Origin: an uncultured delta proteobacterium
GTDB taxonomy: Bacteria > Desulfobacterota > Desulfobacteria > Desulfobacterales > JAHEIW01
NCBI GenBank assembly: GCA_963706575.1
Contig: CAVPNL010000008.1
Location: 224,001 to 288,000 of the forward strand
Direction: 5' to 3'
DNA: 64,000 nt
The position numbers are program-made. Shown here in pieces: positions 27,001 through 36,000 of the stretch (position 1 is its first letter; each line of letters opens with the position of its first letter).

Positions 27001-30000
27001 ATTTCGAACTGGTACCCTTTTTTTTTGAGAGATTTAAAAATCTTACTGTATTTTAAAAGAAATCCCTTTTCCCGTAAGTCCATTACGAGCGCAATTCCGG
27101 CGATTTCTGTATTGCTTTCAATTGGTAATTGGAGGAATTTGGGAAGGAGGGCGACCGGCATATTGTCAACGCAATAAAAACCGGCGTCTTCTAATGCTGC
27201 CATGGCCGTACTTTTTCCAGAGCCCGCTAGGCCGGTAATAATGATGATGGTTAAATGTTTCACTTTAGAGAATTAAGGGGTTGCACCCCAATTGGAATGT
27301 TGGAATACTGGAACGCTGCGGCCTAAAATTCTTCATCCTCTTCTTTGATAACCTCGAATATTTCCTGGCGGTCGGCCGCATTCAGCAACCGGTCTTTGAA
27401 GTGGTCATTTTTTAGAATTCTTGAAATTCGGGCTAAAAGCTTCAAATGAAGACCGGTTGAATTCTCAGGGGTTATCAGGACAAAGAAGATATGGGTGGGT
27501 TGCCCGTCAATCGATTCAAAATCGATGCCCTTACGGCTGAGACCAAAACCCAGAACAAGCGTTTCAAGGTCCTTAATTTTGCCATGCGGAATTCCAATCC
27601 CGCCGCCGATACCGGTACTGCCAAGTCGTTCTCTTTCCATCAGCACCCGGGCCAGATTCTCCTGACTCATGCCGGTAATTCCGACCAGAGGGACCACCAA
27701 TTCCTCCAGAACACCTTTTTTATTCTGCGATTTTAAATCATCTAAAATCGCTTCTTTTTGCATAACTTCAAGAATCTTCATAATTTCATAATTTTTAATA
27801 AAAATCGATTAAAGGGCTCCCGGGGTAAACCGCCGGGCGCAACGTAAATGTAATTCCAAAAATTAAACCTGCAAGCTTATTTTTACGCGTAAAGGTCTTT
27901 GCGTAAATTGCGTGTGAGAATAGGATTTATTTTAAAAAAAAGAATCGGGTAGCGTGTTATACCACCTTTGAACTTTTGCGGCAATCTAAACCCGCTACCC
28001 GCTAAAGGATTAGCTGTTCGGTTGTATCAACCCATAATGGCCGTCTTTACGTCGATACAAAACATTGACCCGATCTGAACGGGCGTTTGTAAATACCAGA
28101 AAATTATCATCTAGCAGGTCCATCTGTAATGCCGCTTCTTCAACATGCATCGGTTTATATTCGATATATTTTATTTTAATTTGCCGTTCCAACTCCTCTT
28201 CGGGCAGGTTCATCTCCTCTGCCAGCATGTCCCTGTTGCGGGCTTTGGCACCGCTGCGGCGCTCCCTGATCTTTTCTTTGCTCTTTTTTATTTGTTTTTC
28301 AAGTTTATCAAGAACCATATCGATGGCCGAGTACATATCGATAGTTTCTTCTTTGCCGTTTATTGTCAGACGGTCTCCGCTAATATTGATTTCAGCCATA
28401 TGGCGGAATTTTTCAACTGATAAAACGACATTGGCCTCTGCGGGATTATCCAGTAGGCGATCAAATCGATCGAGTTTTTCCTGGACATATGATCTTAAGG
28501 TATCGGAAGAATCGAGGTTCTTAAACGTAACCGATGTCTGCATACTTACTCCCCCCCTAAATCTGTTTGCGCTTGTTTGAAGGTAAGACTTTCAGCATTT
28601 CACGATATTTCGCAACCGTGCGACGTGCGATGTGAATGTGATGATCCTGTTTTAAAAGCTGCGAAATTTTATCATCACTGTACGGCTTTTTCGGATCTTC
28701 GTTTAAAATAATCTGTCTGATGTTTTCCTGAACGCTGGCAGATGCAATATTTCCACCGTGGGCCCGCCTGATTGAACTGTTGAAAAAGTATTTGAGCTCA
28801 AAGATACCCTGCGGTGTGTAAGCATATTTATTGGTCGTAACCCGGCTGATTGTGGATTCATGCATCCCAATATCCTGAGCAACATCCCGCAGCACCATCG
28901 GTTTCAAATAGGCAATTCCTTTTTCGAAAAATTCCCTTTGAAATCCCAAAATGCTCTCCATGACCTTATAAATGGTTTTTTGACGTTGATGGATGCTTTT
29001 AATCAGCCAGGCAGCTGACCGGATTTTGTCCTGGATGTAATCTTCGGCTTCCCCGGAAATTTTTTTGCCCTGGCTGATGGTGCTTTTATAAAAGGAATTG
29101 ACGCGAAGTTTGGGCATGCCGTCGTCATTGAGCATGATCACAAAATCGTCTTCCAATTTATAGACATGGATGTCCGGATTGATATATTGCGGTGTTTCCT
29201 CGCTAAACTGCCGGCCGGGTTTGGGTTCGAATGCCTTGATGACATTGACCGCCGATACCACCTCATCCATGCTTATTTTTAATGCCTTGCAGATGCCTTT
29301 ATAATTTTTCTTTTCAAGGTCATGCAGGTGGTTGCTGATGATCTCGCTGATAATCGTATTTTCGAATCCAAAATGGGCGGCCTGAATGAGCAAGCACTCT
29401 TTTAAATCTCTGGCGCATACGCCGATCGGGTCAAAGGATTGCATTCTGGCAAGAAGATTTTCAACCGTCTCCACAGAACTGTAAGATTCCATGGCAATTT
29501 CTTCAACGCTACCATCTAAAAACCCGTCGTTGTTGAGGTTGCCGACAATGAGGCTGGCGATGGATTCTTCCTGCCTGGATGGTTTGGTCATCAAAAACTG
29601 CCACAACAGGTGATCGCGTAAGGACTTTTTAGGGGCGATAAAGGCTTCAAAACGCGGCGCATCTCTATCTTCGGACTCATAGCTGGTCCTGCCGGGTGTA
29701 TTGTATTCACCCAGATAATTGCTCCAGTCGATGTCGTCATGAATTTTTTCTTCGATCTTGACTTCTTCTGTCTTGGGGTTGTCCTCAGCTGGTTTTTCAG
29801 ACTGCTCCGCCAAATTTTCATCGGCGGCACTTTCCTGAACTTCCTCTAGTGCCGGATTTTCCTCAAGCTCCTGTCGAATGGTGTCCAGCATTTCTAAGCG
29901 GGACAGCTGCAGCAGTTTTATGGCCATTTGCAGCTGAGGGGTCATGATAAGCTGCTGCGTTAATTTGAGTTGTTGTCTTAGTTCAAGTGCCATATTATAA

Positions 30001-33000: not shown

Positions 33001-36000
33001 AGCATTATATTCGCAAAAAAGTTTTTAAAAACGATAACATCCGGATTTCGGAGCGGTTTTTGAACTCGAAAGTGCCCGAATTTGAGAACACGATTGCGCT
33101 GGATTCGAGCGGATCGCTGGTGGATAAATTTTTAAAGATCAACCGGGATTTACGCAACGCCAATTATCAGCAAATAAGCGAACTGGCGCAAACAACAGGC
33201 ACCACCAGACGCTGGAAAGGCAAGTTTCTGCGAATGACCGGAGCGGCGAATCAGGCGGGATTTGCCGACCATCGCACCTATAAATACAACGGTAAAATAA
33301 TTGACCGTCAGGTTCATCTGGGGTTGGATCTGGCCTCGGTAACCCATGCGCCGGTACCGGCTGCCAACAGCGGAGTCGTTGCCTTTAGCGGGCCCTTAGG
33401 CATTTATGGGAAAACCGTTCTGATCGATCACGGATTCGGCCTGTTCAGTATGTATGCCCACTTAAATCGCAGCGATGTCAGCAAAGGGCAGGAGGTGTCA
33501 AAAGGCGATATACTGGGCCGTACCGGCAGCACCGGGCTTGCGGGCGGTGACCATTTGCATTTTAGCATTCTGATTCATAACACCTTTGTCAATCCAATCG
33601 AATGGTGGGATGCGGCCTGGATAAAGAACAATATTACATCCAAGATTGACGCGGTGCCGTCGGCCCCGGCTCTCAAATAATTATAAAGCGGGTTATTGGG
33701 TATTTTGAACTGGTTATTCGGTATTCGGTATTGGGTATTTGGTATTGGTTTGAATATTGAGAAAAGAATCTGTTTTTAAGACTATAATCTAATACCTAAT
33801 ACCCATTATCTAATACCTAAATTAATTATGCCAGAAACTTTTCGCGCCTTTATCGCAATTGATCTGCCCGAAAGCGTCAAGTCCTTTCTGAGCGAGGCTC
33901 AGGAGGCACTCAAGTTGCATAGGTTTCGGGTCAAATGGGTCCGGCCGCAAAACATTCATCTGACGCTTAAATTTTTGGGGGATACGGCGACAGCCGATAC
34001 CGATAAAATCGTTGAGGCGATGACGCTGGCAGCAAAGAACTGTCCAATCGTGGCCCTGACGGCTAAAGGTATCGGGGTTTTCCCGAATGTGAGACGGCCG
34101 CGGGTCATATGGGCGGGACTCAAAGGACAGCTTGAGACGCTGGCAAATTTGCAGCAGACGCTCGACGCTCATTTGGCGGATTTGGGTTTTGCCGGAGATA
34201 CCCGGGCGTTTAAATCCCATTTGACATTGGGGCGCGTTAAAGGAAAAATCGCCTCTGACCGGATGAAAGCTGCGATTGATAAACTAAATGAATTCGAATC
34301 TGAACCGTTTGAAGCCAACCGGGTCATTTTGTTTAAAAGCGAGTTGCGGCCTAGCGGGGCGGTTTATACCAAGGTGCACGGGATTGCCTTCCAGGGGCAA
34401 TCGAAATTATGTTGACAATTGGCATTAATTTAAGAGGAGGGCTTTATGACTATTTCACCGGATAAGGAAAAAGCATTAGAAACGGCGATGACCCAGGTCG
34501 AGCGTCAGTTTGGTAAAGGTTCCATTATGAAACTGGGAAGCCGTCCGGTAGTCGATGTGCCGGTTATTTCTACCAGTTCGCTTGCCCTTGATAAGGCGCT
34601 GGGAATCGGTGGGTTGCCCCGGGGAAGAGTTATTGAAATATATGGCCCCGAAGCTTCCGGTAAAACCACGCTTGCGCTGCACGCGGTGGCCGAAGCCCAG
34701 AAGAAAGACGGCATAGCCGCCTTTATTGATGCGGAACATGCGCTTGATACCGCTTATGCCAAAAGACTCGGGGTCAATTGTGACGATCTGCTCGTTGCTC
34801 AGCCGGATACCGGCGAACAGGCGCTGGAAATTGCGGATATGCTGGTTAGAAGCGGTGCCATCGACGTCCTGGTGATTGACTCGGTGGCCGCCCTCGTGCC
34901 GCGTGCAGAAATTGAAGGCGAGATGGGTGACTCCCATATGGGCCTTCAAGCCCGGCTGATGTCACAGGCGATGCGCAAGCTGACCGGCACCATCAGCAAA
35001 ACCATGACTTCGATCATTTTTATCAACCAGATCCGGATGAAAATCGGCGTGATGTTCGGAAATCCCGAAACCACTACCGGCGGCAATGCGTTGAAATTTT
35101 ATTCCTCCGTCAGACTCGACATCCGACGAATTGGACAGATCAAAGACGGGCAGGAGGTGGTCGGAAACCGCACCCGGGTTCGGGTGGTTAAAAATAAAAT
35201 GGCACCGCCGTTTACCGAGGCTGAGTTTGACATCATGTACGGGGAAGGCATTTCAAAACACGGGGATTTAATCGATGTGGGCGTTGAAGCCGGCATTATT
35301 GAAAAAAGCGGGTCATGGTATTCCCATGGCGGTGAACGCATCGGGCAGGGGCGGGAGAATGTCAAAAAATTTCTAAAAGACAATCCCGATCTTTACGAAT
35401 CCATGTACCTTAGGGCCAGAGAGTCACTGGGGCTGTCCGGTTCGGCAAAAGCGGAAACCGAGGACGAGGACAAAAAGGAGAAAAAGGTTTGAAGTGGAGA
35501 GACCAATGACCGGCAATGAGATTCGCACCCAATTTTTAAAATATTTTGAAAAACATCACCACCGGATTGTTCGCAGTTCATCACTGGTGCCTCAGGATGA
35601 TCCCACGCTGCTGTTTATCAACGCAGGAATGGTACAGTTTAAACGGGTATTCCTTGGTGAAGACAAAAGGGAATATATAAGGGCAACCACATCCCAGAAA
35701 TGTGTGCGTGCCGGAGGCAAGCACAATGATCTTGAAAATGTCGGTTATACCGCACGACATCATACCTTTTTTGAGATGCTGGGCAACTTTTCCTTTGGAG
35801 ATTATTTTAAAGAGGGTGCCATTGATTTTGCCTGGGATTTGTTAACCAATGGTTATGGGCTGCCGGGAGACAAATTGTACGGTTCCATTTATCTTGATGA
35901 CGATGAAGCTTACGAACTGTGGCGAAAAAACATCGGCCTGCCGGATGACCGCATTGCAAGATTCGGCGAAGAAGACAATTTTTGGTCTATGGGAGATACG

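Follow-up and report, generated by a model that had tools for sequence, protein, structure and literature searches.

The genus of uncultured Desulfobacterales sulfate reducers to which the present genome belongs has lost the genes of lipid A and Kdo biosynthesis (lpxA/B/C/D/K, waaA, kdsA/kdsC) together with msbA, and it keeps the Lpt export bridge. This genus-wide loss, already claimed in the first-pass annotation, is confirmed by profile searches, by unbroken contigs that carry deletion scars and, for the kept bridge, by purifying selection on lptF/G; a keyword search of the literature found no earlier report of it. After the loss, the outer leaflet was probably built on a sphingolipid exported by the old Lpt bridge; we infer both the lipid and its role as Lpt cargo from gene content.

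The rpoN-lptB-lptA-lptC locus

The window, that is, the whole stretch of 64,000 nucleotides that was analysed, holds one of the scars within the following set of features:

28557..29993, minus strand: rpoN (sigma-54; Pfam Sigma54_AID/CBD/DBD), downstream member of the conserved block
29995..30717, minus strand: lptB, the Lpt extractor's ATPase, kept (ABC_tran; 83% to the syntenic LptB of a relative)
30833..31411, minus strand: lptA, periplasmic bridge, kept (PF03968 over cut-off)
31377..31994, minus strand: lptC, kept (PF06835 over cut-off; likely ATG start at 31958, from the sequence)
31995..32273, no strand: deletion scar of 279 bp, remnant-free, the kdsA-kdsC site in most relatives
32274..33680, plus strand: M23 peptidase gene (PF01551), conserved flank divergent from lptC and syntenic in relatives
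33828..34415, plus strand: 2'-5' RNA ligase family gene (PF02834), a flank outside the system

The block had been described as adjoining the M23 gene where a relative has kdsC-kdsA, and the comparison bears this out: kdsA lies between lptC and M23 in 38 of the 58 loci with both genes (loci, not genomes, some of them present twice), and the spacing is 1.5–2.4 kb in 37 of these 38. In the window it is 279–315 bp; inspection of this gap found no kdsA or kdsC remnant, and an Rfam search of the window gave no match. The gap is real, but as a sign of lipid A loss it is not diagnostic alone, because four other loci (L039, L047, L052 and L056) likewise lack kdsA at this position and the genomes of L039 and L052 retain lpxD-lpxA-lpxB-msbA.

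Loss of lipid A and Kdo genes across the genus

The genus sample comprises 22 genomes of uncultured sediment sulfate reducers, all of them incomplete (68–97%); in the present one, dsrA and dsrB are found over cut-off on contig C9. Profile searches detected LpxC, LpxK and WaaA in none of the 22 and KdsA over cut-off in none, whereas LpxB was found in a single genome (G003), which repeats the earlier count. KdsA matches below the cut-off of 314 bits, present in 14 genomes and reaching 138 bits at most, were left uncounted. LpxA is lacking in all five genomes tested by profile, LpxD is missing by position in 16/16 genus loci, with the genome-wide check made in this bin, and MsbA is missing by position in 14/14, its best match in this bin being at 37%. 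The ABC exporter of the sphingolipid cluster scores 241 on TIGR02203, compared to 579 for the MsbA of a relative. In addition, tblastn of this genome with LpxA/B/C/D/K, WaaA, KdsA and KdsC of relatives gave no match. For KdsB, none of four genomes is over TIGR00466; G002 and G008 come near the cut-off, below which the LPS-positive G219 also falls, and the match of G008 passes NF009905. A GT9 search returned weak matches in the genus (E about 1e-21), and the two stronger matches of G219 are missing from all four genus genomes tested, though no clean scar marks their place.

At five positions, an unbroken contig runs directly from one flanking gene to the other. On C6 of this genome lpxC has been cut out between comM and DUF4390, where it is present in all three sister-genus genomes. 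In congeners of this bin, scars flank the kept skp-fabZ-lptF-lptG genes on three sides, with spacings of 55–79 bp for skp-fabZ (16/16 loci), 125–161 bp for fabZ-lptF (14/14) and 288–532 bp for lptG-DUF4416 (10/10); spacings in the same region of LPS-positive relatives are 1.0–1.4 kb (6/6) and 4.9–8.7 kb (5/5). It is scarcely credible, given these junctions, that the absences reflect faulty assembly or binning: the incompleteness of all 22 genomes and the lpxB-msbA of G003 speak for such an artefact, but the scars refute it unless the lpx genes were relocated. Furthermore, the lpxB-msbA contig of G003 is only 5.3 kb long, its LptG groups with another family outside the genus clade (98 SH-aLRT), and profiles found no LpxC, LpxA, LpxK, WaaA or KdsA in G003. 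The lone LpxB of the genus thus probably sits on a mis-binned contig and was set aside as a genus gene.

A sphingolipid cluster in the genus

Parts of a sphingolipid cluster of the Caulobacter/E. coli type are found in 18 of the 22 genomes. Spt is present in ten, at 64–72% identity and as a single clade in the tree; it scores 629 and 632 bits in G019 and G002 on NF047599 (cut-off 500), and its best PDB match is an SPT (2x8u, 1.5e-132). In the best-assembled genomes (G019, G002, G008 and G010) the five ceramide genes are all present, intact and in one cluster, in the order aasR-cerR-acpR-spt with cerS divergent. The core proteins are 46–56% identical to those of the annotated E. coli operon and 32–58% identical to those of a Caulobacter sp. 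locus, and the candidate CerS is 45–48% identical to the genes that occupy the equivalent position in Caulobacter sp. and E. coli. The cluster also contains a DAGK-family (ceramide-kinase-like) kinase, Tam41-like and MobA-like nucleotidyltransferases and a metallophosphoesterase. An ABC exporter gene directly follows spt; genes for a HAD phosphatase and for a GHL10-like protein also come after spt, as do sugar genes of the nonulosonate type (NeuB/CMP-transferase), the exporter and the sugar genes being on the strand of spt.

These genes suggest a pathway in which AasR would load a fatty acid onto AcpR, Spt would condense it with serine, CerS would add the second chain and CerR would reduce the product to ceramide. 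The kinase and the Tam41-like enzyme may then build an anionic phospho-head, possibly with an acidic sugar, and the ABC exporter would flip the lipid in place of MsbA. Finally, the native LptB2FGC would extract the sphingolipid, and LptA-LptDE would place it in the outer leaflet. The genus ancestor presumably had both LPS and the sphingolipid cluster, and the lipid A/Kdo genes would have been deleted piece by piece with the export bridge kept.

Another glycolipid, made for example with the help of the LpxL-like acyltransferase and of the NeuB/CMP-transferase genes beside the cluster, would make ceramide an accessory, which we consider quite improbable as the account of the Lpt cargo. It would fit the LpxL-family acyltransferase (PF03279) that borders the cluster in the genus loci reaching it and in two genomes of a second LPS-less genus (g28), the KdsB-like transferases of G002 and G008, which are located in surface-polysaccharide loci, and the lack of a CerS orthologue in g28 (0/4; only a 27–30% paralogue). 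The intact, clustered ceramide genes, the co-oriented exporter and sugar genes after spt, and the presence of Spt in every lineage that lost the lipid A genes argue against it.

The bin analysed here contains none of the cluster genes; its best Spt match (C13:82609-83796, 33%) is Kbl beside tdh. The cluster falls in a stretch of more than 100 kb that is unassembled in this bin: this bin has almost no orthologues for some 115 kb of C2 in G019 and 99 kb of C19 in G002, dnaA, dnaB, rplI, lysS, gmk and bamA are missing with that block, and synteny picks up again in the final 150 bp of C3 and close to the beginning of C18, a contig that starts within ftsZ. From this synteny, the species appears to carry the cluster in the unassembled stretch. 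That it lacks both LPS and the cluster, as an exception to the genus, would match the empty search but is very improbable, since almost the whole block is missing from the bin and spt (L220) is present in the assembly whose LptB is closest (L007, 88% DNA identity). Four public sediment runs compared with L220 gave only short pieces at 80–90%, which cannot be assigned to this species, and were given no weight. The gap is also the reason why the candidate lipid was missed at first reading, which had proposed only another lipid carried by Lpt; that lipid now has a named candidate, and its carriage by Lpt is still something we infer.

Independent losses across the Desulfobacterales

LpxC is found in 184 and LpxB in 186 of 201 genomes of the order; absences of LpxC only (7) or LpxB only (6) were not scored as losses. 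Spt occurs in eight of the nine genomes without both, the ninth carrying other cluster genes, compared to 11 of the 191 others; these 11 are LPS-positive, so that Spt is not specific to the loss. The genome-level association (p = 1e-8) is overstated because kin are not independent, and the real count is four lineages. A five-gene tree yields four independent losses, with monophyly rejected by AU tests (p-AU 5.7e-5, 3e-110 and 2e-4), and all three other loss lineages carry Spt. The exchange of LPS for sphingolipid appears, from these gene distributions, to have taken place four separate times in the order. G027 was rejected as a loss, as it retains lpxA, lpxD and kdsA.

Intermediates exist among relatives: g10 has the genes of both lipids, and G218 has a lone lpxC. 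The earlier count of LpxC in three of three sister-genus genomes is right, although G218, which belongs to these three, no longer has the other pathway genes. A second lptFG pair lies in the sphingolipid locus of g28 (4/4), G218, G063, G153, G190, G182 and G104. In g28 and G218 the native lptFG was deleted together with the lpx genes, leaving only the LptF2/G2 of the cluster, and cerS of G218 is split into two fragments separated by about 500 kb. The genus shows the opposite pattern, LptF2/G2 being absent and the ancestral LPS-type LptFG retained. With LPS-positive sisters and intermediates, the four recent independent losses offer a series of replicates that shows how cells come to do without lipid A.

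Relation to known systems

The genus resembles Caulobacter crescentus CC_1152-CC_1168 (CCNA_01210-01226), as judged via the Caulobacter sp. locus, by similarity and position of aasR, cerR, acpR, spt plus cerS, and likewise of homologues of CC_1161 (Tam41-like), CC_1160 (ceramide kinase), CC_1158 and CC_1153. For CC_1159 and CC_1152, the genus cluster stretches examined gave no homologue, though the clusters of LPS-positive G063 and G190 have them, and CPG2 is therefore only a possible head group. Divergent layout and 46–57% identity are shared with the E. coli yghO-aas-cerR-acp-spt-lptG2-lptF2 operon (L191) and the Pseudomonas luteola cluster (L237), the latter also having an ABC exporter after spt (48%); unlike the genus, both carry LptF2/G2, and E. 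coli keeps LPS. Pseudomonas luteola keeps LPS as well. Caulobacter likewise differs in keeping LPS and using LptF2/G2, whereas no LptF2/G2/C2 turned up in the genus loci examined. Among cultured bacteria, Desulfobulbales also have a related cluster (L225, L229).

Natural LPS-free diderms named in the literature drawn on here are few (Sphingomonas, Borrelia, Treponema). Sphingomonas, as described in a 2026 preprint, lacks LpxC, LpxB and WaaA, has a ceramide pathway and keeps the LptA/D/E bridge (bioRxiv 10.64898/2026.04.12.717747), a combination that in the present genus is known from genes. In contrast to S. wittichii, whose only LptFG is the sphingolipid-locus pair, the genus has the ancestral lpx-operon pair, and it consists of anaerobic Desulfobacterales with recent losses and LPS-positive sister genomes. 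Borrelia burgdorferi is also a diderm without LPS that keeps the Lpt bridge, but its loss is an ancient spirochaete one, the cargo is disputed (lipoprotein or glycolipid), and the portions of the literature drawn on here report no sphingolipid cluster. In anoxic marine settings, Desulfobacterota with Spt-like genes have been implicated in sphingolipid production (PMC11334938), and the genus is a candidate source.

The retained Lpt bridge and its cargo

LptA, LptB, LptC, LptD and LptE are all intact in this genome, as had been claimed, with LptD (772 aa) on C4 and LptE and a second LptA on C3. This second lptA was rejected as a correlate of the loss, as LPS-positive G219 also has two. LptF/G are found in 17 of the 22 genomes, this bin lacking them through its assembly gap, and those of G019 are over TIGR04407/04408; a single native pair is present and no LptF2/G2.

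Caulobacter is described in the preprint as exporting sphingolipid by LptF2G2-LptB, and LPS-less Sphingomonas as having a full Lpt set; the same source does not settle if sphingolipid can be carried by canonical LptFG, or if LptA/D/E are shared (bioRxiv 10.64898/2026.04.12.717747). With a single LptFG pair and without lipid A, the genus is a natural test of canonical carriage. The requirement of the Caulobacter sphingolipid for dedicated LptF2/G2, absent here, counts against sphingolipid export by the native bridge, and survival of Caulobacter without lipid A needs fur inactivation besides sphingolipid (PMC9393093). Chances are about even that an unmodified ancestral LptB2FG took over an unrelated acidic-sugar sphingolipid without a paralogue, within a set of at least four Desulfobacterales swaps in which sisters lost the ancestral pair and held on to the paralogue. 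If true, either LptFG type could stand in for the other over evolution, and canonical Lpt would be a broad lipid exporter.

Alternatively, the sphingolipid may be made but minor or exported by another route, with Lpt mainly surfacing lipoproteins, which is unlikely. LptD-dependent surface lipoprotein export, reported for LPS-less Borrelia and likewise for Bacteroidota and E. coli, could by itself keep Lpt under selection; the missing LptF2/G2, an LptG with no signal of re-tooling and G137, which has LPS, Spt and only a native LptFG pair, point the same way. However, a second Borrelia study reportedly saw no transport of lipoproteins by Lpt and argued for glycolipids instead (PMC10353723), and the survival of only the cluster LptFG in g28 and G218 ties the remaining bridge to the sphingolipid in these close relatives.

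Under the preferred reading of sphingolipid export, the native bridge would still be in use. Values of dN/dS are 0.046 for lptB (this genome against L007), 0.60 for lptA in the same pair and 0.30–0.40 for lptA in three other close pairs. For lptF/lptG, seven of eight genus gene-pair values are 0.09–0.13, the eighth being 0.30 at low dS, compared to 0.16–0.30 in LPS-positive pairs; judged from these ratios, lptF/G is under purifying selection in the genus. Fixed changes at invariant columns number 3/62 in LptG, 10/110 in LptF, 6/212 in BamA and 6/141 in LolE, so that the native LptG has no excess and nothing in its sequence points to a change of cargo. The search for cavity residues that had been re-tooled brought no clear result. 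Where the solved enterobacterial proteins have K34, the aligned LptG residue is D in 9/9 LPS-positive relatives and E in 10/10 genus sequences, which on the alignment is a conservative change.

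Loss of the lipid A and Kdo genes

The first-pass annotation had proposed that lipid A and Kdo biosynthesis was lost throughout the genus of this diderm, in whose genome dsrA and dsrB score over cut-off in a profile search. Profile counts across the 22 genus genomes (68–97% complete) bear the proposal out: LpxC, LpxK, WaaA and over-cut-off KdsA were each found in 0 of 22, and LpxA in none of the five genomes tested. Across the order sample, LpxC is present in 184 and LpxB in 186 of 201 genomes.

Gene position is stronger evidence than mere absence. LPS-positive relatives have the order bamA-skp-lpxD-fabZ-lpxA-oxidoreductase-lpxB-msbA-lptF-lptG, followed in several by lpxK. 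Among the 22 genus members, the fabZ locus was examined in 16 (of the other six, five lack a true fabZ match, and the match is split in G004), with spacings taken as distances between the ends of tblastn matches. Skp abuts fabZ in all 16 loci, fabZ abuts lptF in 14 of 14 informative loci and lptG abuts DUF4416 in 10 of 10, and thus there are deletions on three sides of the kept genes. Furthermore, contig C6 of this genome (990 kb) has no lpxC between comM and DUF4390, the place where it lies in all three sister-genus genomes, in agreement with the earlier count.

A lone lpxB in the genus had been noted as counter-evidence. It is indeed present in one of the 22 bins (G003), but it sits on a 5.3 kb contig whose LptG clusters in the tree with a genome of another family, outside the genus clade, and it is probably mis-binned. 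A KdsB-like transferase within a surface-polysaccharide locus of two genus members (G002 and G008) leaves residual doubt about the loss of "all Kdo genes". We regard the loss of lipid A/Kdo genes in the genus as real with near certainty.

The features of the window are as follows:

Minus strand: rpoN-lptB-lptA-lptC, with the M23 gene divergent, 279–315 bp off
15048–21200: AT-rich series of long ORFs, a probable insertion
21423–22841: DDE transposase adjoining secG, up to which the ORF series extends
33681–33827: interval without the HcyBio gene (PF01837) found in most relatives between the M23 and 2'-5' RNA ligase genes

The kdsC-kdsA pair is, as first described, absent here on an unbroken contig, but this gap is not diagnostic alone. 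Of the loci fetched, 58 hold lptC together with M23, and kdsA is present in 38 of these; the 20 others are the window, its nine closest loci, the genus member G019, four genomes of a second LPS-less genus (g28), the sister-genus genome G218, and four loci from a separate lineage (L039, L047, L052, L056). Since this last lineage keeps lpxD-lpxA-lpxB-msbA in the two genomes checked, the scar in the window is by itself no proof of LPS loss. The HcyBio gene is also absent at the nine closest loci, and it has no match anywhere in this genome. Two of the long ORFs at 15048–21200 gave no match when run against Pfam.

Retention of the Lpt bridge

The bridge is kept, as had been claimed: LptA, LptB, LptC, LptD and LptE are intact in this genome, and LptF/G matches occur in 17 of 22 genus genomes, each with at most one pair. 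This pair is 55% and 61% identical to the sister-genus lpx-operon pair, compared with 22–23% to LptF2/G2, the sphingolipid-locus paralogues, of G218. By a simple Nei-Gojobori count, lptF and lptG are under selection, with dN/dS low at 0.09–0.13 in four genus pairs (one value is 0.30 at dS 0.06) and 0.16–0.30 in two LPS-positive pairs. LptA and lptC evolve faster, at 0.16–0.60 in the genus and likewise at 0.24–0.44 in three non-genus pairs. Sequence comparison gave no clear sign of re-tooling in LptG. A second LptA-family gene lies at L192:8113–8721 (C3:404112–404720 of this genome) and also occurs in LPS-positive G219 and in G019, G218 and G196.

A sphingolipid cluster in the genus

When lptFG was followed up in further LpxC-negative genomes, a sphingolipid cluster came to light, and its Spt was found in 10 of 22 genus genomes at 64–72% identity (three as contig-end fragments). 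Because this count was below that of fabZ, the genus was searched with a 13.3 kb DNA query taken from the cluster and its flank, which revealed cluster parts in 18 of 22 genomes, including the earliest-branching members. No cluster part was found in the remaining four. Three of them (this bin, G015 and G016) are also without the flanking genes, fabZ and lptFG, and in G003 the contig stops just past the flank. In G019 the cluster comprises:

First arm: LpxL-like acyltransferase, Tam41-like, DAGK-family kinase, metallophosphoesterase, MobA-like transferase, cerS-like
Divergent arm: aasR-cerR-acpR-spt-ABC exporter-HAD phosphatase-400 aa protein-neuB-SDR-CMP transferase-surface carbohydrate gene

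Spt scores over the NF047599 cut-off and its best structure matches are solved SPTs. The five core proteins are 46–56% identical to those of an annotated E. coli operon of the same layout, and for nine cluster genes there is a counterpart in a locus of a Caulobacter sp., where the gene order agrees with the description of CC_1165–CC_1153 in PMC11324152. Neither a CC_1159-like nor a CC_1152-like gene turned up in the genus cluster stretches examined, and therefore the product is not assigned to CPG2, the Caulobacter phosphosphingolipid. Model features liken the 400 aa protein to GHL10 glycosidase-like clusters, which is a lead to its possible nature. Related clusters occur in the cultured Desulfobulbales Desulfopila aestuarii and Desulfoprunum benzoelyticum (L225, L229).

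By analogy with Caulobacter, the cluster enzymes would make ceramide, the ceramide-based lipid would gain an anionic head group, the ABC exporter after spt would flip it, and the native LptB2FGC-A-DE would export it. A sphingolipid outer leaflet is probable in the genus, and the native Lpt is a fairly likely carrier. The earlier suggestion of another lipid carried by Lpt is supported and extended by a candidate in those 18 genomes, the carriage being what we infer. In this respect the genus would work like Sphingomonas; it falls outside the LptF2G2 type, because that feature was tested for and not found in it. Background was taken from bioRxiv 10.64898/2026.04.12.717747, PMC11324152, PMC11334938, PMC11087976, PMC5548808, PMC9393093, PMC10353723 and 10.1101/2022.12.21.521298.

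The caveat that the bamA-lptFG region of this bin is unassembled holds. Almost no orthologues occur here for some 115 kb of C2 in G019 and 99 kb of C19 in G002, stretches that contain the cluster, bamA, lptFG, dnaA, dnaB, rplI, lysS and gmk. Synteny picks up at C3:555,764 (of 555,911) and at C18:4,014, C18 beginning inside ftsZ. Since spt-ABC-HAD is also found in the assembly with the closest LptB, the cluster is likely to be present in this species.

Repeated losses in the Desulfobacterales

The literature searched, which excluded most subscription journals, gave no report of Desulfobacterota that have lost LPS or replaced it with sphingolipid, and the absence may already stand in phylum-wide supplementary tables. 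Both LpxC and LpxB are absent in 9 of 200 other sampled order genomes, namely four of the genus, four of g28 (98–100% complete) and G162, a further LPS-less lineage. The cluster co-occurs with this loss, as its Spt type is found in 8 of these 9 versus 11 of the 191 others (seven further genomes with a remoter match of 39–43% were left out of the count). Outside the sample, G218 has Spt and an intact orphan lpxC (L141:9568–10488) and lacks LpxB, LpxK, WaaA and KdsA, with lpxA and lpxD absent by position; the orphan may mark an advanced step of the loss. The LPS-positive genomes G219 and G220 of the same genus, both incomplete, have neither Spt nor LptF2/G2, and G219 is also without LpxK and KdsB matches.

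The locus order in g28, G218 and G162 is bamA-skp-fabZ-DUF4416, the native lptFG having been lost together with the lpx genes. The cluster LptF2/G2 is kept in g28 and G218; G162, whose spt contig is just 4.7 kb, gave no LptF/G match. A five-gene tree of 29 genomes requires four changes. For 17 of these genomes, AU tests (run with a quick search and without a mixture model, the outgroup lying on a long branch) reject joining the genus with G218, with G218 and g28, and all four. Lipid A genes have been lost more than once in the order.

Five genomes (G063, G153, G190, G182 and G104) carry LpxC, LpxB and the cluster with LptF2/G2, a Caulobacter-like state, and G137 (genus g59; loci L177, L187) has LPS genes and the Spt cluster with the native LptFG pair only, a possible dual-cargo case. 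Between genera the Spt tree has little resolution, so no donor and no single acquisition is claimed. Two points speak against a simple story: a CerS orthologue was not found in g28, and in G218 the cluster lies in two halves (L136, L148) ~500 kb apart with the break through cerS, reflecting either an inversion or mis-assembly. In G198, an LPS-operon-bearing congener of G162, the lpxK and lptF matches are fragmented (L180), due either to sequencing frameshifts or to early decay.

In addition, this genome has a fatty-acid/polyketide-type cluster (L211, C12:149000–171800) with ketosynthases, FabZ-like dehydratases, radical SAM genes, an MMPL-like protein, a LolA-like protein and an LpxL-like acyltransferase, which, with genes named by sequence reading, presumably resembles an aryl-polyene-type lipid cluster.
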